From positions 416,001 to 480,000 of the forward strand of contig CAYSCM010000001.1 in NCBI GenBank assembly GCA_964429815.1: 64,000 bases of DNA, in the 5' to 3' direction. The notes under the pieces are model-generated. The model saw only the letters and a list, made by a program, of their open reading frames with translations. It was not told the origin of the DNA and did no database searches. Positions 4,679 through 64,000 of the stretch are shown here, in pieces; position 1 is the stretch's first letter; each line of letters begins with the position of its first letter. The position numbers and the translations under genes were made by a program. Source of the DNA: an uncultured Candidatus Saccharibacteria bacterium (GTDB lineage Bacteria > Patescibacteriota > Minisyncoccia > Phycocordibacterales > CAYSCM01).

Positions 4679-5083
4679 ATGTTCGAGCTTATCGCGAGAC
4701 TGCAAAAGAAATCCGAGCACGAGCGTCAGGCGATCGCTTTTTGGGTCGCCGCAAGCGTGACCGGCGTCATCGCGCTTGGCTGGTTTGTCTCCGTCATGAC
4801 GCTCCGGAGTGCACCGGCGGCGAATACCGCAGCCTCGGATTCATCGCTTCCCGGTACCGGGCAACTTCAAAATATCGGGACATCCGCCGTGAATTTCTAC
4901 GAACAATTCAAACAAAATCTTGACCAGGTCCGCTCGGGCCTCTCGGGCCAGACTCAAACTGAAGGTAGCGTACAGCCGGCACCCCCAGGGGGGAGTGTCA
5001 CTGATACGACCTCATCAAATAACGAGCCCCCGCCCGCGCGAGCGCCCTCTCAGCCTATATGGGAGGGGAATGGAGGGCAATAA
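4679..5083 (+). CDS. hypothetical membrane-anchored protein (one TM, low-complexity C-terminus)
   Basis: 134 aa. ATG overlaps the upstream stop (TAACCATG). TM segment [22 protein letters not shown]-terminus is S/T/P rich. Confidence 0.5.
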
Positions 5084-5085
5084 CC

Positions 5086-7554
5086 ATGGCTGACGATAAA
5101 AAAACGAACTACGAGCACCAAAGCATCCTTCCGCGCAGCATCAGCGCGGAGATGAAAGAAGCGTACCTCGACTACGCGATGAGCGTTATTACGAGTCGCG
5201 CACTCCCTGATGCACGTGACGGCTTAAAGCCGGTGCACCGCCGCATTCTCTACACGATGCATCGACTCGGACTCGCCTCGACCGCGAAGGCACGCAAATC
5301 AGCGACCGTCGTCGGCGATGTGCTCGGTAAGTTCCATCCGCATGGCGATGTGGCAGTCTACGATGCGATGGTGAAGATGGCCCAAGATTTCGTCATGCGC
5401 TACCCGCTCATCGTGGGGCAGGGCAACTTCGGTTCGATAGACGGCGACTCCGCCGCAGCCATGCGCTACACCGAGGCAAAAATGTCGCGCATCGCCGTCG
5501 AGCTCCTGCGCGACCTCGACAAAGAAACGGTCGAGTGGCGTCCCAACTACGATGGCACGCTCAAAGAGCCCGTCGTGCTGCCCTCTGCGGTTCCGAACCT
5601 TCTCTTAAACGGCACTCTCGGCATCGCGGTCGGCATGGCAACGAACGTTCCCCCGCACAACCTCGGTGAGGTGATCGATGCGACCATCCACCTCATTGAA
5701 AACGACGAAGCGGGAAATGAAGATCTTCTCCAGTTCGTCAAAGGCCCCGATTTTCCAACCGGCGGCATCGCGTACAACCAAAAAGATATTTCGCACGCCT
5801 ATGCGAGCGGGAAGGGGGGCGTGGTTGTTCGCGGCGAGACGGAAATTTCTGAAGATAAGAAAGGGCAGTTCCGCATCGTCATTTCCTCCATCCCGTACCG
5901 CGTTAATAAAAGTGATCTCATTGTAAAGGTTGCCGATCTGGTGCGCGAGAAGAAGCTCGAAGGCATCCGCGACATCCGCGACGAATCGACCAAGGACATC
6001 CACATCGTCGTTGAACTGAAGCAGGGTGCTCAGCCGCAGAAGGTACTCAACTATCTCTTCAAGCACACGCCGCTTGAGGAAACCTTCCACTACAACATGC
6101 TCGCACTTGTCGACGGCGTACCGCAGACGCTCTCGCTCAAGGGCATTCTCGAGGAATTTATCAAGCATCGTCGCGAGGTGGTAAAGCGCCGCACGGAGTT
6201 TGACCTCAAGGTCGCCGAGGATCGCGAACATATTTTGCTCGGTCTTTCCAAGGCGCTTGATCATATCGATGCCATCATAAAGATCATAAAGGCGGCTAAA
6301 GACGTGCCGACCGCTAAGGTGGATTTGATGAAGAAGTTTAAGTTTTCTGATCGCCAGGCGGATGCGATCTTGGAAATGCGACTTTCAAGGCTTGCGGGGC
6401 TTGAGCGCAAAAAGATCGAGGATGAACTCACCGAGGTACAAGCGCTCATCAAAAAGCTCAAAGATATTCTCTCGAGCCCGAAGAAAATCCTTGCCGTCGT
6501 CAAAGAGGAGCTCGTCGCGATTCGAGAAAAGTACGCGGACGACCGAAGGACGAAAGTCGTGAAGGGCGGCGTGAAAGAGATATCCGATGAGGATCTCATT
6601 CCGGATGAGGAGAGTGTGCTCGTTCTCACCGCTGGCGGCTACGTGAAGCGCACCAACCCTTCTGAGTACCGCAAACAGAAGCGCGGCGGTGTCGGCGTCG
6701 TCGACCTCGATACGAAAGAAGAAGATTTTGTCACGACCTTCCTCACCACCTCGACCCATGCGGACCTTCTCTTCTTCACCGACCGCGGCAAAGCCTACCA
6801 AATAAAAATGTACGACATTGCGGAGGGGCGCCGCGCGACGAAGGGGAAGTCCATCATGAACTACCTGCCGCTCAGCGACGGTGAAAAGGTCTCGTCCATC
6901 CTCGCGATGCCAAAATCAGCAAAGAAAGCCGAGGGACTCGCACTTCTCATGGTCACCAAAAACGGTGTCGCGAAAAAGGTGAAGGCCCAGAGCTTCTACG
7001 ACGTGCGCCGCTCAGGCCTCATCGCCATTACCCTTAAAGAAAAGGGTGATGAACTCATTTCCGCAAACTTTGTCGAGAAGGGGGACCATGTGATCGTCGC
7101 CACCAGCAAGGGCCAATCCATCCGCTTTAAGGAAAGCGATATTCGCGAAATGGGGCGCACCGCCGCAGGAGTGCGCGCTATGAAACTTGGGAAGAAGGGA
7201 GACGCGGTTGTCGCTGCAGAAATCATCAAAAAAGGTGACAACACCGCGGAGCTCCTCGTGCTTAGTAAAAAAGGCTACGGTAAAAAAACCAAAGCGAGCG
7301 AATACAAAGTACAGCACCGTGGCGGCTCGGGCATTAAGACTTCGAAAGTCACGGACAAAACAGGAGAAATTATTGCCTCGCGCATCGTGACCCCGGAAGA
7401 TGTCGCGGAGGGTGAGCTTGTCGTCATTTCTAAGAAGAGCCAGGTTATCCGCACCGACCTCAAGGCCGTGCCGACACTCTCTCGCGCAACGCAGGGGGTG
7501 CGTATTATGAAGCTTCGCGAGGGAGACGCGATCGCAAGCTTCGTCTGTCTGTAG
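5086..7554 (+). CDS. gyrA: DNA gyrase subunit A
   Basis: [30 protein letters not shown] and the full GyrA length. Start taken at ATG 5086 (MADDKK) right after the upstream stop, again a TAACCATG junction. No gyrB in the window. Confidence 0.92.
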
Positions 7555-56656: not shown

Positions 56657-58288
56657 ATGACGGCTCACACCCGTATCGCTATGCTGTATTTGCGCCTCAT
56701 TTGGAGACAATTGAAAATAGTCGGAGCGCACCTTAAGACCATCGGCAAAATTGTCTGGTCGTTCGCTAAATCGCACAAAATCGTGAGCTCGATCGTAGCG
56801 GCCGCCTTGGCCACAGGCCTTGGTGCGGCCGCTTATTTTGGCGCCAGCAAGGCCGCGACGACGATAGCGGAGGGTCCTGCCGTCCACCTCGTGCGCGTCG
56901 GCGACGTGTCCGCCTCAGCTCCCATTTCGCTCATCGGCATCGTGCGCGCCACGCGGGAGGCCAATGTCGCTCCGGATATTTCTGGCACGGTCTCGGCCGT
57001 GTACCGCAACCTCGGTGACTACGTGCCCGCCGGGACCATCATCGCGGAGCTTAAAAACGACACGCAGCGCGCTGCCGTGGCGGCTGCTCGCGCGGCGCTC
57101 CAAAAAGCCCAAAGCGGCAGCGTCGTCGGCGGCATCAGCGTCGAGAACGCCCAGAATTCCTACGCCGCAGCCATCGATACCGCACGGTCAACGGTACAAA
57201 GCGCATACTCGACCATTGATGACGCTATCGCACGAAAAGCGGATCAAACGTTTTCAAACCCCAACAGCCCGCAGCCGCATTTCAACGTCTCAAGCTCTAA
57301 TTCGCAGCTCGTCGTCAATGTTCAAAATGACCGTTTGGCTATGCAGGCCATTCGGGCGCGCGAGAGCACGGTAGTGGTAGCTACACTCTCTCCAGGCGAT
57401 CTCCTTGCCGAACTCTCCTTACTTGGAAGTGAAGTAAAGTCCGTTCAAAACTTCATGCAGGACCTGGTCGCCGCACTTAATGCCGCCGTTCCCACCTACG
57501 GGATCACTGAAGCGACTATCGCAGGCTATCGTGCGGACGTATCAGCAGGGCTCGCCAGCATTAATGCGCTTGCGAGCTCACTGCCGGGAGTATCCGAGAT
57601 GCTCAAAACAAAACGTGCCGCGGTCGACATCGCTCAGACGTCGCTTGCAACCGGCTCCACGGGAGAGAGCGCCGACGTTGCGGCTGCGGAGGCGAACCTC
57701 GCGCTCCAACTCGCCGGACTTGAGAAAACGCTCATCCGAGCCCCCATCTCCGGGACCGTCAATAGGCTCGATCTCGACGTCGGCTCTTTCGTCAACGCAT
57801 CGGTCCCAATCGTCTACATCACGAGCGCCGGTGGTCTTGAAGTGGTCGCCTTCGTTTCGGGAAATGACATCGCTGACATCGCCGTCGGAGCCAAAGCGAA
57901 GGTAGGCGCCAGTGTTGACGGGGTAGTCGCACGCGTCGCAAGCGCCCTCGACCCTCTGACGAAAAAGGCGGAAGTGCGGGTCTTTGTACCGCCGTCCGCT
58001 CCGCTGGTCGCAGGACAGTCGGCGACCGTCTCTGTAGAGCGCTCCGCGCCAAAGGTCCCGTCGGCAAATCCGACCCTCACCGTCCCCCTCACCGCGATCA
58101 AGATAACGCCGCAATCTCCCTTGGTGTTCACCGTGAACGACGCGCACCAGCTCGTCGGAAATCCCGTGGTTCTCGGAACCCTGCGCGGGGACAGCGTCGA
58201 CATTGTAAGCGGCGTTACCGCCACCATGCAGATAGTCGAGGACGCCCGCGGGCTTAAGGAAGGACAGGCAGTTATCGTAAATCCCTAA
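56657..58288 (+). CDS. efflux RND transporter periplasmic adaptor subunit (HlyD/MFP family)
   Basis: N-terminal TM, long alpha-hairpin region, beta-barrel/MP domains (LIRAPISGTVNRLDLDVGSFV). Directly upstream of the RND permease. Confidence 0.8.
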   Translation: MTAHTRIAMLYLRLIWRQLKIVGAHLKTIGKIVWSFAKSHKIVSSIVAAALATGLGAAAYFGASKAATTIAEGPAVHLVRVGDVSASAPISLIGIVRATREANVAPDISGTVSAVYRNLGDYVPAGTIIAELKNDTQRAAVAAARAALQKAQSGSVVGGISVENAQNSYAAAIDTARSTVQSAYSTIDDAIARKADQTFSNPNSPQPHFNVSSSNSQLVVNVQNDRLAMQAIRARESTVVVATLSPGDLLAELSLLGSEVKSVQNFMQDLVAALNAAVPTYGITEATIAGYRADVSAGLASINALASSLPGVSEMLKTKRAAVDIAQTSLATGSTGESADVAAAEANLALQLAGLEKTLIRAPISGTVNRLDLDVGSFVNASVPIVYITSAGGLEVVAFVSGNDIADIAVGAKAKVGASVDGVVARVASALDPLTKKAEVRVFVPPSAPLVAGQSATVSVERSAPKVPSANPTLTVPLTAIKITPQSPLVFTVNDAHQLVGNPVVLGTLRGDSVDIVSGVTATMQIVEDARGLKEGQAVIVNP

Positions 58289-58294
58289 ACCGCC

Positions 58295-61200
58295 ATGTCC
58301 GGCCTCTGGAACTTTTTTATTGAACGACGGCAGTTCACGATACTCGTCATGATAGCGCTCACCGCGGCAGGCCTTGTCGCGGTCATCGCCATACCCAAGG
58401 AAAACGCACCCGAGGTTAAGGTGCCGGTCGCGGTCATCGCGACGACGCTCCGAGGCGCTTCTGCCGCGGACGTTACCAAGCTCGTCACCAAAGAGATCGA
58501 GAAGGAGGTTGGGACGGTCGAAAATCTTCACAAGCTCACCTCCTCTTCGCGGGAGGGAGTGTCGGTCGTGACCGCGGAATTCGAAGCCTCCGCCAACCTT
58601 GACAAATCTATCCAGAACATCAAAGACGCGGTCGACCGCGCCAAGCCGAACCTGCCGCGCGACGCCGACGAGCCCGTCATAACCCGTGTTTCTTTCAGTG
58701 ATCAGCCCATTCTCATCATTTCGATCTCGGGCGGGCTTCCGCCGACGGAGTTTGCCTCGCTTGCGAAGGACGTGAAAGACCAACTCGAGCTCGTTGCCGG
58801 CGTTTCCTCTGTTGACGTGGCCGGGACACGCGAGCGCGAAGCGGACGTCGTCGTGCGCCGCGAGGCGCTCGACGCCTACGGACTTACGCTCTCCGATGTC
58901 GTCGGTGCGATCGGCGCCGCGAACGCCTCGCTCCCCATCGGCACCATTACCGTCGACAAGGTCGAGTACGCCATCGCCTTTCACGGCGATCTCAATGACC
59001 CTGAAGACCTCCTCGGGGTGACCGTGGGACAGGTTGGCGGGCGGCCCGTGTATCTGCGCGACATCGCGGACATCGTTAACGGCATCGAAAGGGCGAAGAC
59101 CATCTCTCGCGCGTCGGTGCACGGGTCGCCCGCCGAGCCTGCCGTGACGCTTTCCGTCCATAAGCGCGCCGGTGCAAACATTTTCCTCACCGGAAGCGCC
59201 GTCAAGAAGAAACTTTCCGAACTCAGCGCAACGACCCTCTCGGGCCTTACGACCTCGATATCGATAGACCTCGGAGCGGAAGTCTCCAAGAGCCTCGGCG
59301 AGCTCACTCGGGTCGGCGTCGAAACGGTCATTCTCGTTATTTTGTGCCTCCTTCTCACGATAGGCTGGCGGGAATCGATCGTCGCCGGACTCTCTATCCC
59401 GCTCTCCTTTGTCATCGCATTCTCCGGACTTTATCTTTCCGGCAACACCATCAATTTCGTTTCGCTCTTCTCGCTCATTCTCGCGATAGGAATCCTCGTC
59501 GACTCCGGCATCGTCGTCACGGAAGCCATCCACACGCGCCTCAAGCGTTTCGGAGAGCCGATCTTTGCCGCAAAGGAAGCGATACGCGAGTATGCCTGGC
59601 CGCTCACCGCGGGGACCCTTACGACGGTCGCGGTGTTTGCGCCTCTCTTTTTCATCTCCGGCATAACGGGGCAGTTCATCGCCTCCATCCCATTCACGGT
59701 AATTTTCGTCCTTATCGCGTCCATTTTCGTCGCGCTTGGCCTCGTGCCGCTTATTGCGATCATGTTCACGAAGACGGAGCTCAACGGCCTCGAGCGGCTT
59801 CAGGAGGAGTGGAACCTCAAGCTCCAGAGGCGCTACCGGGCGTGGCTGCTTCGCATACTCGGCGACGGAGCGTTCCAGCGGAAGTTTTTGCGCGGCATGA
59901 CCGCGGGTTTCATCATCGCCCTCATCCTGCCCATGACGGGGCTCGTCAAGGTCATCTTCTTTCCCCAAAGCGATTCCGAGTATGCGTACCTTGAAATAGA
60001 GACCAAGCAAGGGACGCCGCTTGCGCAAACCGATCTCGCCGCGCGTGGGGTCGAGGAGCTTCTCTATGGAGACCCGCGCATCGCCTCCTTCGTAACGACG
60101 ATCGGCGCCACCTCGCCGCTCTCCCAAAGCCCGACTTCGGGCACTAAGTACGCCAACATCACGATTCGCCTCGTGCCCGAAAAAAATCGCGCGCAAAGCT
60201 CAACGAAGATCGTGAACGAGCTGCGCAACAAGGTCGCAGTCTTCCACGATTTCACCGTGCGCGCGCTTGAGCCGCAGGGCGGCCCGCCGACCGGCGCGCC
60301 GGTTGTTATCACCTTCTCGGGGGAGAATCTCGATGATTTGGAGAAGGCGGCCGACCTCGGAGAGCGAACCCTCAAGGAAATCCCAGGGGCGATCGAGGTG
60401 ACGACCTCGACGAAAGATAATGGGACGCAGTTTGGGCTCACTATAGACCGAGGAAAAGCGGCGGAAGTAGGGTTGACCCCTGTCCAAGTCGCCTCCGCGC
60501 TTCGCACGGCGGTCTCCGGCACTATCGCGACTACCATCAAGAGCGATGCGCGGGACATCGACGTGCTCGTCCTTTCCAATCTCAACCCGAACTGGCGCGA
60601 TCCGACGGATACGACCGAGGCGACGATAGATTCCGTCATGAACCTTTCGATAAAGACACCGCGGGGGAGCGTGTTGCTCGGCTCCATTCTCGCCTCCGGC
60701 ATCGAGCGCAACAGCGCCATCATTAAACGCGAAGACCAAAAGAACATCGCGACGGTTTCCTCGTACTTGTTGCCGGGGAAGACGGCAGGAGAGGTTTCGT
60801 CCGCCTTTTCCACGGCGATAAAAAAGGTCGATTTTCCGAAGGGAGTGGCTATGAAGATAGGAGGCGAAACAGCAAATGTCGACCAATCGTTCCAGGAAAT
60901 GTTCTATGCCCTCATCGGCGGCATGGTTCTCATGCTCGCCATACTTGTTCTTGCATTCAACTCTTTCCGCTACTCCTTCTACCTCCTGATGCTCGTGCCG
61001 CTTGCGCTCATCGGCGTTTTTGCCGGGCTTGCGATAACGCGCCAGCCGCTCTCGTTCCCTTCGCTTCTCGGCGTCATCGCGCTCGCTGGCGTCATCATCA
61101 ACCATGCCATCATCCTTGTTGATTCAATGATCGTGCGCATGAAAAACCCGGAGGGCAGAGGGCTCCCCGAGGTCGTCGCGGACGCCGCCGTTTCGCGCTT

Positions 61201-61420
61201 CCGGCCAATAATCCTCACCACGCTTACGACCGTCATCGGCATGGTGCCGCTCGCGGGCGCGTCAGCGCTGTGGGGCCCGCTCGCGTTTGCCATTATGTTC
61301 GGCCTCGCCTTCGCGATGGTGCTCACGCTTGTATTGACACCCATCCTTATTTTCCGACATCCCGGTAAAGAGTTTTGGAAGGAGCCTCAATCTGCAGCGC
61401 ACGGTAGTGCAAACGCTTAA
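58295..61420 (+). CDS. efflux RND transporter permease subunit (AcrB/HAE1-like)
   Basis: 1041 aa, 12 TM with two large periplasmic loops, conserved TM4 region (LSLFSLILAIGILVDSGIVVTEAI). Confidence 0.9.
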   Translation: MSGLWNFFIERRQFTILVMIALTAAGLVAVIAIPKENAPEVKVPVAVIATTLRGASAADVTKLVTKEIEKEVGTVENLHKLTSSSREGVSVVTAEFEASANLDKSIQNIKDAVDRAKPNLPRDADEPVITRVSFSDQPILIISISGGLPPTEFASLAKDVKDQLELVAGVSSVDVAGTREREADVVVRREALDAYGLTLSDVVGAIGAANASLPIGTITVDKVEYAIAFHGDLNDPEDLLGVTVGQVGGRPVYLRDIADIVNGIERAKTISRASVHGSPAEPAVTLSVHKRAGANIFLTGSAVKKKLSELSATTLSGLTTSISIDLGAEVSKSLGELTRVGVETVILVILCLLLTIGWRESIVAGLSIPLSFVIAFSGLYLSGNTINFVSLFSLILAIGILVDSGIVVTEAIHTRLKRFGEPIFAAKEAIREYAWPLTAGTLTTVAVFAPLFFISGITGQFIASIPFTVIFVLIASIFVALGLVPLIAIMFTKTELNGLERLQEEWNLKLQRRYRAWLLRILGDGAFQRKFLRGMTAGFIIALILPMTGLVKVIFFPQSDSEYAYLEIETKQGTPLAQTDLAARGVEELLYGDPRIASFVTTIGATSPLSQSPTSGTKYANITIRLVPEKNRAQSSTKIVNELRNKVAVFHDFTVRALEPQGGPPTGAPVVITFSGENLDDLEKAADLGERTLKEIPGAIEVTTSTKDNGTQFGLTIDRGKAAEVGLTPVQVASALRTAVSGTIATTIKSDARDIDVLVLSNLNPNWRDPTDTTEATIDSVMNLSIKTPRGSVLLGSILASGIERNSAIIKREDQKNIATVSSYLLPGKTAGEVSSAFSTAIKKVDFPKGVAMKIGGETANVDQSFQEMFYALIGGMVLMLAILVLAFNSFRYSFYLLMLVPLALIGVFAGLAITRQPLSFPSLLGVIALAGVIINHAIILVDSMIVRMKNPEGRGLPEVVADAAVSRFRPIILTTLTTVIGMVPLAGASALWGPLAFAIMFGLAFAMVLTLVLTPILIFRHPGKEFWKEPQSAAHGSANA

Positions 61421-61565
61421 TGCGCGTGGCGTTCGATCATCACCGGGAGGGAAACCTGGGTCGCTTCTGCTCATTTCCACGACCAGCCCCTTGCCGCATA
61501 GGTACGTCGTACTCAGTAGTTGACCCGGTATCCTCCTTGGAGCAGGGAAGGTGGCGAGAGGTCTA

Positions 61566-61594
61566 TTGACCGTCGTGAATAAATATGCTTTAAT
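61566..61594 (+). promoter_or_regulatory. sigma70-type promoter TTGACC-17-TTTAAT for paralog A
   Basis: ttgaccgtcgtgaataaatatgctttaat. A paralogous promoter at 62587-62615 shares the ataaatatg spacer. Confidence 0.5.
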
Positions 61595-61629
61595 TTCCCT
61601 CAGTTCTTTGGCATTCAAGAGTACCGTGA

Positions 61630-61684
61630 GATGAGCTTTTTGTGGCTGAAAAGTCGGCCCCAAAAAGCTCGTCTCATCAGAGAC
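61630..61684 (+). promoter_or_regulatory. conserved 5'-leader stem-loop, copy A (candidate cis-regulatory RNA)
   Basis: 13-bp stem gatgagctttttg/caaaaagctcgtc encloses ggcug-aaaagu-cggcc, followed by hairpin gtctc-atca-gagac. Copy B at 62659-62702 differs by compensatory base pairs. Confidence 0.45.
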
Positions 61685-61733
61685 AGTCGCCAGTCCGAGC
61701 GCCACGGGCATCACACCACTAAGGAGGTATGCG

Positions 61734-62501
61734 ATGGAAACCATCGTGAGCCGCACCTTGTCGGTACACAAGGAACACGAAGTCCTTCTGAAGCTCGAAG
61801 CGGCGGGGTTCAGCGACGATCTCGCACAGAAGGTCATCGAATCGAGGGACAACGACCTCGCCAAAAAGGTCGTGCGCCTCATTCGGAGCGGCGGCCTCGA
61901 GCCGTCGACCTCACAGCAGAAGGCCCGCGAGATCATGGGCACGAACATGTTCGGCATCGAGGACGCGATCAAGCATTTCGACGTCAACCCGTCGAAGACC
62001 CAGCTTGCCGCACTCTGCGAAATCCCGTTCAGTGAGGAAGTGCTCGTGGCCTCTAAGGACACGCACGTTCTTGTGGCGCTGTTTCCACTTTCAATCCTCG
62101 ACGTTCGAGGCGAGGCCGACTGTAGGCTCTTCTACTTCCACGAAGGCACCTGGTACAACAAGAAGCAGGCGTTCGCGAAAGACAGGGGCGAGATCGGCTG
62201 GCAGCTCGTTCGCAAGACCCCGGTTGACAACTCGACGAGCAAGTCTTGGGGCGAGCAGCAGAAACTGCTCGGTAAGGACGAGGAGACGCCGAAGGCGCAG
62301 GTAATTGTCTATACGATCATTGCCCACTTTCTCTCAACCGGCGAGCGATTGTTCGAAAGCATCTACGTCAGATGTTCCGATCTCGGCTCGGACGGCTTCC
62401 GCATCAACGTCGGCCGTTTTAACGTCATAGGTCTCCACATCAACCACTACTGGGACGACCGCCGCCACGACAACCTCGGCTTATCCTCTGCCCGGAAGTA
62501 A
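61734..62501 (+). CDS. hypothetical protein, paralog A (255 aa)
   Basis: SD AAGGAGGtatgcg-ATG. C-terminal half is homologous to 62753-63538 (IYVRCSDL..G..VG.F...GL...YWDD.RHD.LGLSSARK). Confidence 0.55.
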   Translation: METIVSRTLSVHKEHEVLLKLEAAGFSDDLAQKVIESRDNDLAKKVVRLIRSGGLEPSTSQQKAREIMGTNMFGIEDAIKHFDVNPSKTQLAALCEIPFSEEVLVASKDTHVLVALFPLSILDVRGEADCRLFYFHEGTWYNKKQAFAKDRGEIGWQLVRKTPVDNSTSKSWGEQQKLLGKDEETPKAQVIVYTIIAHFLSTGERLFESIYVRCSDLGSDGFRINVGRFNVIGLHINHYWDDRRHDNLGLSSARK

Positions 62502-62536
62502 CCTTGAATCTTGGGGCCTCGGTCTCTTGTTCCCTT

Positions 62537-62576
62537 GAGCCCCTGCGAATTTTTTTTGCGGGGGCTCTTTGTTTTT
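62537..62576 (+). terminator. intrinsic terminator after paralog A
   Basis: gagcccctgcg...cgggggctc, then tttgttttt. Confidence 0.65.
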
Positions 62577-62586
62577 GGCACTGAGA

Positions 62587-62615
62587 TTGACTAGAGTCTA
62601 TAAATATGATAAAGT
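62587..62615 (+). promoter_or_regulatory. sigma70-type promoter TTGACT-17-TAAAGT for paralog B
   Basis: ttgactagagtctataaatatgataaagt. Confidence 0.45.
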
Positions 62616-62658
62616 GCGTCCGGCGTTCTTTTCCATTTACTACAAAGGTTACTTATGA

Positions 62659-62702
62659 GGCGAGCTTCCTGCGGCTGAAAAGTCGGCCCCAAAAAGCTCG
62701 TC
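62659..62702 (+). promoter_or_regulatory. conserved 5'-leader stem-loop, copy B
   Basis: ggcgagcttcctgc-ggctgaaaagtcggcc-ccaaaaagctcgtc. Outer-stem pairs G-U and C-G occupy the positions where copy A has A-U and U-G. Confidence 0.45.
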
Positions 62703-62752
62703 TCAATCAAGAGGTAGCCGCTCGCCCAAGCGTAGGGCACAGGAGAACGACG

Positions 62753-63538
62753 ATGACGACCGCCAGGTCTATCACGTCCGAACAGCGTACCCAGTACAAT
62801 CGCTTCGTGCAGGATGGAGGCCGCAAGGCTCTTCGCCAAGCCGGTCTCGACAGGGAGGGTCTGCAACGGCTCTTCAAACGCGGCGGCGAATTCCAAGCCC
62901 ATATCTTGGAAGGCGTCAAGCGTTTTTCGGCGAAGCAGCCGGACTACACGCTGGCGCAATCCATCCTCGGCGTCGATTTCATCACGCCGGAGGAGCTCAT
63001 GAAAGTGTCGGCGGTAATTTACGAGGACAAGCACCTCGCTTCGCTCCACGACACTGTCCCGCCGGAAGACGTTCTGCGTTGGTGCAAAGACCATAATTAC
63101 GTCGTGGTCGCGGCCCCACCCTATCCGATAAACTTGCTCAACATCCGCATGCTCGACAGCAGCCTCTTCTATTCCAAAACGGGCGGCTGGTATTCCGAGC
63201 AGAAGTTCGCGAGCGAGAACAAGACCAACACGGGCTGGCTCATGATCCGCAAGGATCCTGTGCCGAAATCGACCAGCAAGAACTGGGACGAGCAGAACCA
63301 GCTCGTCTTCGGCGTCGAGCACGTTCCGAATTCGGCCGAGGTGAGTTGGCTTGTCACGACCTATTTCAAGGTTCGCGGCGTCCGGCTCTTCGAGAACATC
63401 TACGTCAGATGTTCCGATCTCGACTCGGGCGGCAACCGCGTCTACGTCGGCTACTTCGACTCGGAGGGTCTCCGCGTCAGCTTCTACTGGGACGACTTCC
63501 GCCACGACCTCCTCGGGTTGTCCTCCGCCCGGAAGTAA
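62753..63538 (+). CDS. hypothetical protein, paralog B (261 aa)
   Basis: Start set to ATG 62753 with SD cAGGAGAacgacg-ATG. The track ORF 62606 includes the leader. Homologous to paralog A over the C-terminal roughly 150 aa. Confidence 0.55.
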   Translation: MTTARSITSEQRTQYNRFVQDGGRKALRQAGLDREGLQRLFKRGGEFQAHILEGVKRFSAKQPDYTLAQSILGVDFITPEELMKVSAVIYEDKHLASLHDTVPPEDVLRWCKDHNYVVVAAPPYPINLLNIRMLDSSLFYSKTGGWYSEQKFASENKTNTGWLMIRKDPVPKSTSKNWDEQNQLVFGVEHVPNSAEVSWLVTTYFKVRGVRLFENIYVRCSDLDSGGNRVYVGYFDSEGLRVSFYWDDFRHDLLGLSSARK

Positions 63539-63573
63539 CCTTGAATCTTGAGGCCTCGGCCTCTTGTTCCCTT

Positions 63574-63612
63574 GAGCCCCCGCGAAATTTTTCGCGGGGG
63601 CTCTTTGTTTTT
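63574..63612 (+). terminator. intrinsic terminator after paralog B
   Basis: gagcccccgcgaaa-tt-tttcgcgggggctc, then tttgttttt. Confidence 0.7.
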
Positions 63613-63644
63613 AGAGTGAAAAATTTGTTCTTAAGGAATGGTCA

Positions 63645-63673
63645 TTGACGCAATAGAAGCTATGTGTCATAAT
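63645..63673 (+). promoter_or_regulatory. near-consensus sigma70 promoter TTGACG-17-(TGt)CATAAT, leaderless start
   Basis: ttgacg(63645-50), 17-nt spacer, tgtcataat. ATG at 63680 is 7 nt downstream of the -10. Confidence 0.55.
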
Positions 63674-63679
63674 TGAGGC

Positions 63680-63856
63680 ATGACAGGCAAGCGAGCCCAT
63701 AACCCGACCCGAGGCCCCATCAAGACTTTTATGGAGAATGGCCACTGGAGCGTTAAGCGCCACAAGACGGTCATTTTGGTGTGCCGCTCATGCGGCGGGA
63801 AATATGTAAAGACGCGTGATCGGCAGACCATGTGTTTGCGCTGTCTCCTCGCCTAA
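63680..63856 (+). CDS. hypothetical small zinc-ribbon protein (58 aa)
   Basis: MTGKRAHNPTRGPIKTFMENGHWSVKRHKTVILVCRSCGGKYVKTRDRQTMCLRCLLA with CxxC-x17-CxxC. Absent from the ORF track (<60 aa). Confidence 0.4.
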   Translation: MTGKRAHNPTRGPIKTFMENGHWSVKRHKTVILVCRSCGGKYVKTRDRQTMCLRCLLA

Positions 63857-64000
63857 CGGGATCACAAACGAGCGCCGCGCATCAAAACGATGCGCGGCGC
63901 TTTGCGTTTACGACACACTCTGCCAGTATAGGAAAGCATGGACGTCTGCAGCAAAAGAAAAACGGCCGGCTTTGTGCCCTATCGGATGGGCGGCCACTCC

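Follow-up and report, generated by a model that had tools for sequence, protein, structure and literature searches.

What is the long hairpin that precedes each of two paralogous genes at the end of a 64-kb stretch of DNA from an uncultured Candidatus Saccharibacteria bacterium (contig CAYSCM010000001.1, positions 416,001 to 480,000; the window hereafter), and is it maintained by selection as RNA? The last 2.5 kb of the window consist of two tandem + strand genes, paralogs A and B, whose proteins share 35% identity, and the leader of each contains a copy of the hairpin, here called P2. Copy A (61626-61677, + strand) forms 23 bp with the loop AAAG and a folding energy of -33.8 to -35.1 kcal/mol (z = -9.2), and copy B (62656-62705, + strand) forms 20 bp with two C·A mismatches (-30.9 kcal/mol, z = -6.7), the z-scores being those of 51-nt segments against dinucleotide shuffles. 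Within the 64 kb, a 33-nt core, GGCTGAAAAGTCGGCCCCAAAAAGCTCGTCTCA, matches exactly twice, once in each leader on the + strand (61644-61676 and 62673-62705), and shuffled sequences contain no match. An earlier, sequence-only reading of this locus had quoted a leader sequence common to both genes, and it is indeed present in both, with the 33-nt core identical; the reading had also drawn a 6-nt AAAAGU loop and placed the hairpin about 45 nt from the Shine-Dalgarno sequence (SD), where we find a terminal loop of 4 nt (AAAG) closed by an A-U pair and distances from the end of P2 to the SD of 43 nt in A and 35 nt in B. The DNA shared by the two cassettes is confined to two blocks, one in the leader (77 nt, 82% identity) and one spanning the 3' end of the gene and the 3' untranslated region (UTR) (239 nt, 83%). 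Set against the 35% identity of the proteins, the 82% identity of the leader block means that the hairpin is far better conserved than the genes behind it.

The two copies in the window, taken alone, are weak evidence for selection on structure. The differences between their outer stems (A-U to G-U and U-G to C-G) had been read as compensatory, but they are one-sided changes, compatible with pairing and not compensatory, because the 3' arm is identical in both copies; moreover, the mid-stem of copy B contains two uncompensated C·A mismatches, with UUCCUG opposite CAAAAAG. Two copies in the same genome could equally be explained by recent duplication or gene conversion, so homologs were needed to decide.

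Database searches gave 906 relatives for paralog A and 152 for paralog B; every one is a hypothetical protein, and all those with a named source are from Patescibacteria/Paceibacteria metagenome-assembled genomes. A protein-first search using one genome per species gave 26 loci, of which 15 have a clear P2 hairpin in the equivalent position, 2 retain decayed remnants and 9 are without P2. A degenerate DNA pattern for both P2 arms, applied to metagenome contigs, matched at least 120 loci, and about 100 of these are true leaders, with a promoter on the 5' side and an SD and an open reading frame (ORF) on the 3' side in the same orientation. The same hairpin is found in more than 100 Patescibacteria leaders. 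We scored covariation in a MAFFT alignment of 65 leaders, covering P2 and a smaller downstream hairpin, P3, that is described below. In this set, 93.2% of cells pair as compared with 78.3% in column shuffles (0 of 500 reached the observed value), and pairing drops to 32-45% when the partners are slid by 1-3 columns. Double-sided changes occur at 19 of 25 pairs and in 245 cells, with up to 5-6 pair types per position.

Since the pattern search had itself fixed most of the outer stem, the count was redone on leaders not chosen by pattern, namely 24 that were recruited via the protein or via the covariance model only. These leaders give nearly the same picture, with 92.2% of cells paired and 14 of 21 pairs changed on both sides, including the outer-stem positions 7:61, 8:60, 9:59, 11:57 and 12:56. 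At the R/Y position that the pattern left free, the pairs are A-U in 61 leaders, G-U in 37 and G-C in 16, and the mismatch A·C occurs once where about 9 would be expected. Homologous leaders that broke the proposed pairing without compensation would have spoken against the hairpin; the leaders examined do not show this, and 92-93% of their cells pair. That the hairpin is kept by selection on its pairing, as the sequence-only reading had supposed, is thus borne out by the homologous leaders and not by the pair in the window.

The strand on which P2 acts can also be told from these data. G·U pairs are frequent at fixed positions, namely 9:61 (24/65), 20:50 (40/65) and 25:45 (41/65), and they fix the sense strand, that of the mRNA, as the acting strand. 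A covariance model of P2, linker and P3, termed R1, scores copy A at 78.1 bits on the + strand versus 42.2 on the - strand, and copy B at 64.7 versus 43.7; across the leaders, sense scores are 65-94 bits and antisense scores 30-50, the sense strand being ahead by 20-45 bits. P2 invariably stands between a promoter and an SD and faces the same way as the gene. P2 is almost certainly a selected RNA structure that acts in cis on these mRNAs. Two features of the sampling weigh on the other side: the leaders are phylogenetically related and metagenomic, so that the shuffle statistics overstate their independence, and most were recruited by a pattern or a model that favors the consensus. Copies of P2 within one genome are also more alike in their variable inner part than copies from different genomes (identity 0.67 versus 0.57, p = 0.002; 0.91 for the pair in the window), a comparison that drew on window copies A and B and on six further loci, and this likeness points to gene conversion or to co-evolution with a trans factor.

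The anatomy of P2 is that of a plain helix of nearly fixed length. It is unbranched in all of 115 hairpins, with a mean folding energy of -32 kcal/mol; the helix measures 21-24 bp in 88% of these hairpins and spans 23-25 positions in 77%. The outer 9-12 bp (AUGAGRCGAG / CUCGYCUCAU) are conserved in the sequence itself, whereas the inner stem, constrained only to pair, drifts freely by compensatory change. The loop is unconstrained in sequence as well as in length (3 to 16 nt), and the arms lie 29 to 43 nt apart. All invariant columns lie within the outer stem, and P2 contains no conserved unpaired nucleotides, junctions or pseudoknot. Conservation confined to the helix, a free loop and a fixed length fit a site of double-stranded RNA (dsRNA) read by a protein, not a ligand aptamer. 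P2 has the regular dsRNA helix of about two turns (at least 20 bp) that an RNase III substrate would need. It does not have the form of an intrinsic terminator or attenuator, as it is followed by AUCAGAGAC or AAUCAAGAG with no U-tract, and a terminator scan of the cassettes found hairpins only after the stop codons.

A second partner for the 3' arm lies immediately downstream. The motif GAGRYRAG, 3-5 nt past P2, is a near-copy of the 5' arm and is complementary to the 3' arm CUCGYCUC. In leader A the repeat is GAGACAGU (61680-61687, + strand), which copies the 5' arm of P2 and is complementary to GUCUC of the 3' arm; in leader B it is GAGGUAGC (62711-62718, + strand), which pairs with the 3' arm at 6 of 8 positions. 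The alternative hairpin of A (61667-61687) has a predicted energy of -8.1 kcal/mol (z = -3.1). Among the homologous leaders, a mean of 6.5 of 8 positions pair between the 3' arm and the repeat, as against 5.2 for shuffled flanks, and in the MAFFT alignment 93.8% of the cells of the alternative helix pair versus 29-46% when it is slid. Pair 61:78 is UA in 47 leaders, CG in 9 and UG in 4. Of 17 leaders with C in the arm, 15 have G in the repeat, and of 98 with U in the arm, 76 have A in the repeat, regardless of what stands in the 5' arm. Double-sided changes fill 11 cells of this helix, whereas 2.6 are expected and none of 500 shuffles reaches 11. The repeat is absent or decayed in orthologous leaders without P2; in nine orthologs of paralog A, P2 and the repeat are lacking as a unit, while the promoter and SD, and mostly also the 5' box and P3 described below, are retained. 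The 3' arm thus pairs either with the 5' arm, in P2, or with the repeat, in an 8-bp alternative hairpin, and both pairings covary. Having to pair with two partners accounts in part for the outer stem being conserved in sequence, and it suggests that the leader has two states.

Which genes carry the motif? Behind the pattern matches, 78 of 96 ORFs fall into one single-linkage cluster and 65 of 96 match the A/B profile (E < 1e-3). The family often occurs in tandem arrays, with one leader per gene. Paralog A (61734-62501, + strand; 255 aa) has N-terminal helices followed by a C-terminal domain with a C-type-lectin-like fold, and paralog B (62753-63538, + strand; 261 aa) was delimited from its ORF frame and the alignment with paralog A. 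The C-terminal domain has structural similarity to CLec, FGE or DUF1566 domains. Sequence searches of the encoded proteins against Pfam, NCBIfam, PHROGs and the PDB were empty, so that only the fold is assignable, and family searches returned no match to an RNA-binding family and no recognizable RNA-binding domain. The family is large, restricted to Patescibacteria and has no Pfam model. It is a mosaic paralog family, marked by the motif, in which N-terminal regions have been swapped between subfamilies. A second family of about 290-305 aa, with the C-terminus GSASGFLPQ, a B-type N-terminus and no Pfam match, was seen with the same leader at four loci and others.

The lectin-like fold is that of the variable proteins of diversity-generating retroelements (DGRs) and of Lcl/DUF1566, and we considered whether the paralogs might be DGR targets. 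There is no template repeat in the 64-kb window, and the only DNA repeats that the window holds of 61500-63650 are the two paralog blocks. As the C-terminus is the most conserved and not the most variable part of the family, nothing points to an active DGR here. An open frame of 843 codons at 5023-7551 (+ strand), the sole frame above 250 codons in the window with a YxDD motif, is much longer than the usual DGR reverse transcriptase. A phage origin of the motif was likewise set aside, as the arm pattern had no match among 2.9 million viral contigs of IMG/VR and no PHROG match was obtained.

P2 and its repeat are set in a larger conserved cassette. Its order is a strong sigma-70-type promoter, the 5' box GUUCUUUGA, P2, the GAGRYRAG repeat, P3, a strong SD, a hairpin over the SD and start codon (SD-AUG hairpin), the gene, a UUGA-rich 3' UTR element and a terminator. 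Paralogs A and B each have their own promoter, strong SD and intrinsic terminator. The promoter of A (61566-61594, + strand) was read from the sequence as TTGACC and TTTAAT separated by a 17-nt spacer, with TGC just 5' of the -10 element, and that of B (62587-62615, + strand), found by a promoter scan, as TTGACT and TAAAGT with the same spacing and TG 5' of the -10 element; homologous leaders have a near-consensus TTGAC(A/T)-17-TATAAT at the equivalent place. With near-consensus promoters, a GGAGG SD and strong terminators, the cassettes appear built for high expression. The larger conserved leader, the second covarying partner of the 3' arm and the conserved 3' UTR had all gone unremarked in the earlier reading.

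The 5' box lies just past the -10 element, as GUUCUUUGG in A (61603-61611, + strand), a conserved motif at the start of the leader, and as GUUCUUUUC in B (62625-62633, + strand; read from the sequence). Allowing up to 2 mismatches, GTTCTTTGA precedes the hairpin in 80 of 106 leaders versus 15.5% of shuffles, and its CUUUGA/CUUGA core recurs in the 3' UTR repeats. A 5'-terminal hairpin formed by this box ("P1") was tried and rejected, as its energies in the window (-2.0 and -0.4 kcal/mol) are no better than those of shuffles; the box is a sequence motif only. P3, which follows the repeat, typically has the form CCCGA-GCGAU-UCGGG, and in the 65 leaders all 5 of its pairs show double-sided changes and 82% of cells are paired. 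In the window, P3 of A, which is part of model R1, is GUCCG / CGGGC (61693-61709, + strand) and P3 of B, aligned to it, is GCCC / GGGC (62724-62738, + strand). It persists in homologous leaders without P2. A pseudoknot between the linker AGYCGY and the P3 loop was sought by eye and dropped for want of consistent complementarity. In one subfamily (N-terminus ...SGLWT...), eight loci carry an extra conserved element, CUCUCUAAAGUCUCnnAGAGGGACAAAGAGAG, between P3 and the SD.

The translation start of paralog A is itself enclosed in structure. Its SD, AAGGAGGU (61721-61728), and start codon (61734) are overlapped by a hairpin at 61726-61752 (+ strand; -13.6 kcal/mol, z = -3.0) in which codons 4-7 are paired with the GGU of the SD and with the AUG. 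RNAalifold recovered the same hairpin from 24 A-type leaders, in which pair 203:218, between the untranslated base before the AUG and the third base of codon 4, is GC in 14, CG in 9 and UG in 1. In paralog B, with the SD AGGAGA at 62741-62746 (+ strand), the hairpin of the start region has an energy of -12.6 kcal/mol and z = -1.1. In B-type genes, inspected by eye only, GAUGA 5' of the start seems to pair with a conserved AUCAC of the 'ITS' codons.

The conserved 3' UTR begins right after the stop codon and in about 25 genomes reads GAACCUUGAAUCUUUGAGGGCUUGACCCUCUUGAUUCCUUGAGCC, then the terminator. It contains a small hairpin, GAGGG/CCCUC, and UUGA about every 10 nt, with 3.6 copies per 75 nt versus 0.37 in shuffles; its sequence is suggestive of either another RNA element or a multimeric protein-binding site. 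In the window it occupies 62502-62576 (+ strand) after paralog A, comprising UUGA repeats and a terminator with its stem at 62537-62567, 83% identical to the B block, and 63539-63612 (+ strand) after paralog B, with the terminator stem at 63574-63603; the terminator scan and sequence conservation support both.

What, then, does P2 do? The leader probably controls the processing, stability or translation of the family mRNAs. We speculate that P2 is recognized as dsRNA by a protein, most likely RNase III, and that a cut midway along its roughly 23-bp helix would strip the leader of its 5' part. Left on the mRNA, the conserved 3' arm could then pair with the downstream repeat, so that the mature mRNA would begin with a hairpin, and this new 5'-terminal hairpin would set the half-life of the mRNA and hence the output of an otherwise occluded translation start. 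We hold this specific sequence of processing and refolding only tentatively. Its nearest precedent is found in the leaders of E. coli rnc (rncO) and pnp, which are hairpins cut by RNase III that set mRNA stability. Like P2, these are long, near-perfect 5' UTR hairpins of about two helical turns in which the dsRNA character matters and not the loop, and the fate of the 3' arm after cleavage decides the stability of the mRNA. They differ from P2 in belonging to another phylum and gene family, with no similarity in sequence or covariance model; they have no described counterpart of the covarying downstream repeat, and cleavage at P2 is putative.

Several observations weigh against the proposal. 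The alternative helix is far weaker than P2 (-8 and -6 versus -31 to -35 kcal/mol), and in copy B its hairpin (-5.8 kcal/mol, z = -1.0) is no better than shuffles. The covariation of the alternative helix rests on two positions. P2 is dispensable for expression, given that 9 of 26 orthologous leaders are without it. RNase III needs no particular sequence, so the need of the 3' arm to match two partners accounts for only some of the strong conservation seen in the outer-stem sequence. Beyond a conserved dsRNA helix whose 3' arm has a second partner, the steps are ones that we infer from sequence.

The main rival is that P2 is an operator for an RNA-binding protein, either the lectin-fold paralogs themselves, in auto- or cross-regulation, or a dedicated regulator, possibly reading P2 together with the 5' box and the UUGA repeats. 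By favoring the 3' arm in one of its two pairings, such binding would tune translation or decay. We regard such an operator as somewhat doubtful, although it accounts better than processing does for the conserved sequence of the outer stem, for the G·U wobbles kept at fixed positions and for the greater likeness of leaders within a genome, which fits co-evolution with a trans factor and yet could also be obtained by gene conversion. The motif is almost exclusive to one superfamily and each paralog has its own copy, and the 5' box and the conserved, single-stranded UUGA repeats hint at an additional binding protein. An autoregulatory element recognized by a protein had been among the proposals of the sequence-only reading, and of this the tie between the motif and the family of its putative binder, as expected of an autoregulatory leader, holds (78/96 and 65/96 ORFs, as above), whereas the encoded proteins match no RNA-binding family, and C-type-lectin-like domains are not known to bind RNA. 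Sequence-specific reading of a regular A-form helix is, moreover, uncommon, and P2, at 35-43 nt from the SD, could not act by direct occlusion. The autoregulatory leaders of ribosomal-protein operons resemble the present ones in being 5' UTR structures attached to one gene family across many genomes, with conserved helices and G·U irregularities. They differ in that they mimic an rRNA site and usually overlap or contact the SD, from which P2 is 35-43 nt away, and the proteins encoded here have a lectin-like fold without known RNA binding.

It is unlikely that P2 is simply a passive stabilizer, that is, a stable 5' stem-loop that blocks decay from the 5' end or insulates the start, with neither processing nor a switch. 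In favor of this explanation, P2 is very stable, lies close to the 5' end of mRNAs transcribed from strong promoters and is dispensable in some orthologs; mere protection, however, would need neither the fixed length nor the outer-stem sequence nor the covarying downstream partner. The E. coli ompA hairpin, B. subtilis aprE and ermC and the B. thuringiensis cry3A STAB-SD are likewise leader elements, structured or SD-like, that prolong the half-life of highly expressed mRNAs. Known 5' stabilizers of this kind act at the extreme 5' end or through ribosome binding and are gene-specific, whereas P2 begins about 25-40 nt past the 5' box, is internal in the leader, has a fixed length and a conserved sequence, and is common to a whole paralog family.

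An explanation at the level of DNA, as the operator of a dimeric factor, a site of recombination or gene conversion between paralogs, or the remnant of a mobile hairpin insertion, is very improbable. P2 is a near-palindrome just past the promoter, conservation between paralogs is found at both ends of the cassettes and not in between, copies are homogenized within genomes, and among orthologs P2 and its repeat are present or absent as a unit. However, the variable distance between the arms (29-43 nt) rules out a dimeric DNA operator, and G·U pairs and wobble-only changes are intelligible only if sense-strand RNA is what pairs. The sense strand outscores the antisense strand by 20-45 bits, the orientation to the gene is invariant, and the inner stem covaries, with up to 5-6 pair types per position. 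A DNA palindrome or operator was rejected on the grounds of variable spacing, G·U pairs and strand asymmetry.

The sequence-only reading had also offered a riboswitch or a thermometer, and we consider either to be more improbable still. It had matched the hairpin to no known riboswitch class, and our scans agree: Rfam 15 (4227 models), run over the whole window at the gathering threshold, returned only 8 tRNAs, and a permissive cmscan (E <= 10) of 61400-64000 gave as its best match mir-208, at 26.1 bits versus a gathering threshold of 56.4, a generic model that matched on both strands and is spurious. The leader does have a conserved structure with an alternative pairing, as a riboswitch would, and that pairing includes neither a U-tract nor the SD. 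The conserved bases, however, all lie in helices, there is no aptamer-like junction, pseudoknot or conserved unpaired nucleotide, and the loop is fully variable. The ROSE and fourU thermometers are, like P2, 5' UTR hairpins, and they control translation; they are weak hairpins that contain the SD or AUG, whereas P2 is too stable and lies at too great a distance from the SD. Of the structures in these leaders, the SD-AUG hairpin, at 61726-61752 over the SD and AUG of paralog A, is the only one that resembles a thermometer, and it could respond to temperature.

Least probable of all is translation-coupled control, as in leader-peptide attenuation, with a short upstream ORF that opens at the conserved AUG where P2 begins; a ribosome entering P2 would release the 3' arm to pair with the repeat. 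The P2 base does read AUG in 90 of 110 leaders and, in a further 18, GUG or UUG, and some have AAGGU or GAGGU 7-13 nt upstream. In 77 of 110, however, a stop falls within the hairpin (median 11 codons), stops are fewer in another frame, and nothing like an SD precedes the AUG in half of the leaders. The A of this AUG is accounted for by pairing with the U that follows the 3' arm. We rejected this reading as the main mechanism since the frame is not kept open and no SD is consistent.

The neighborhood of the paralogs adds a few observations of its own. Directly upstream, at 56657-61420, lies an AcrB-family RND transporter (1041 aa, E = 5.5e-177) with an HlyD-like adaptor, and an efflux pair of this AcrB/HlyD type is unexpected cargo in a reduced Patescibacteria genome. 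Downstream, at 63680-63856, an ORF of 58 aa with CxxC...CxxC motifs has weak zinc-ribbon matches and a near-consensus promoter of its own (63645-63673). A terminator-like hairpin nearby (63871-63901) was assigned by the scan to the - strand.

We found no description of the motif or of the gene family in the literature, a search whose coverage was incomplete and which therefore gives absence of evidence only; the motif is apparently undescribed. It is comparable to the orphan hairpin motifs that comparative genomics has brought to light, which covary, stand upstream of a family of unassigned function and have no known ligand (Weinberg et al. 2017, PMC5737381); P2 differs in that no Rfam 15 model matches it and that, as sampled, it is restricted to Patescibacteria. 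No new principle is involved, as structured leaders, RNase III sites and autoregulatory operators are well known. The motif itself is robust, with more than 100 representatives, textbook covariation, a second partner, conserved companions on its 5' and 3' sides and no Rfam entry.

How the ultrasmall Patescibacteria (the Candidate Phyla Radiation) regulate their genes has hardly been explored, and these bacteria encode few transcription factors. The motif flags a large, uncharacterized family of lectin-fold paralogs as a co-regulated set, and the covariance model together with defined mutations provides a handle for finding the partner protein or nuclease. The natural high-expression cassette could serve the genetic tools that are under development for Patescibacteria. 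A broader and quite speculative possibility, to which we give little credence, is that the hairpin forms the core of a post-transcriptional control system specific to Patescibacteria, in which the leader is bistable, switching between P2 and the repeat hairpin, and is read, together with the 5' box and the UUGA repeats, by RNA-binding proteins or nucleases that coordinate the lectin-fold paralogs or make their expression mutually exclusive. If this were true, these bacteria, which have very few classical regulators, would possess at the RNA level an analogue of variable surface-protein control, and the lectin-fold paralogs so regulated may mediate ligand or host recognition.

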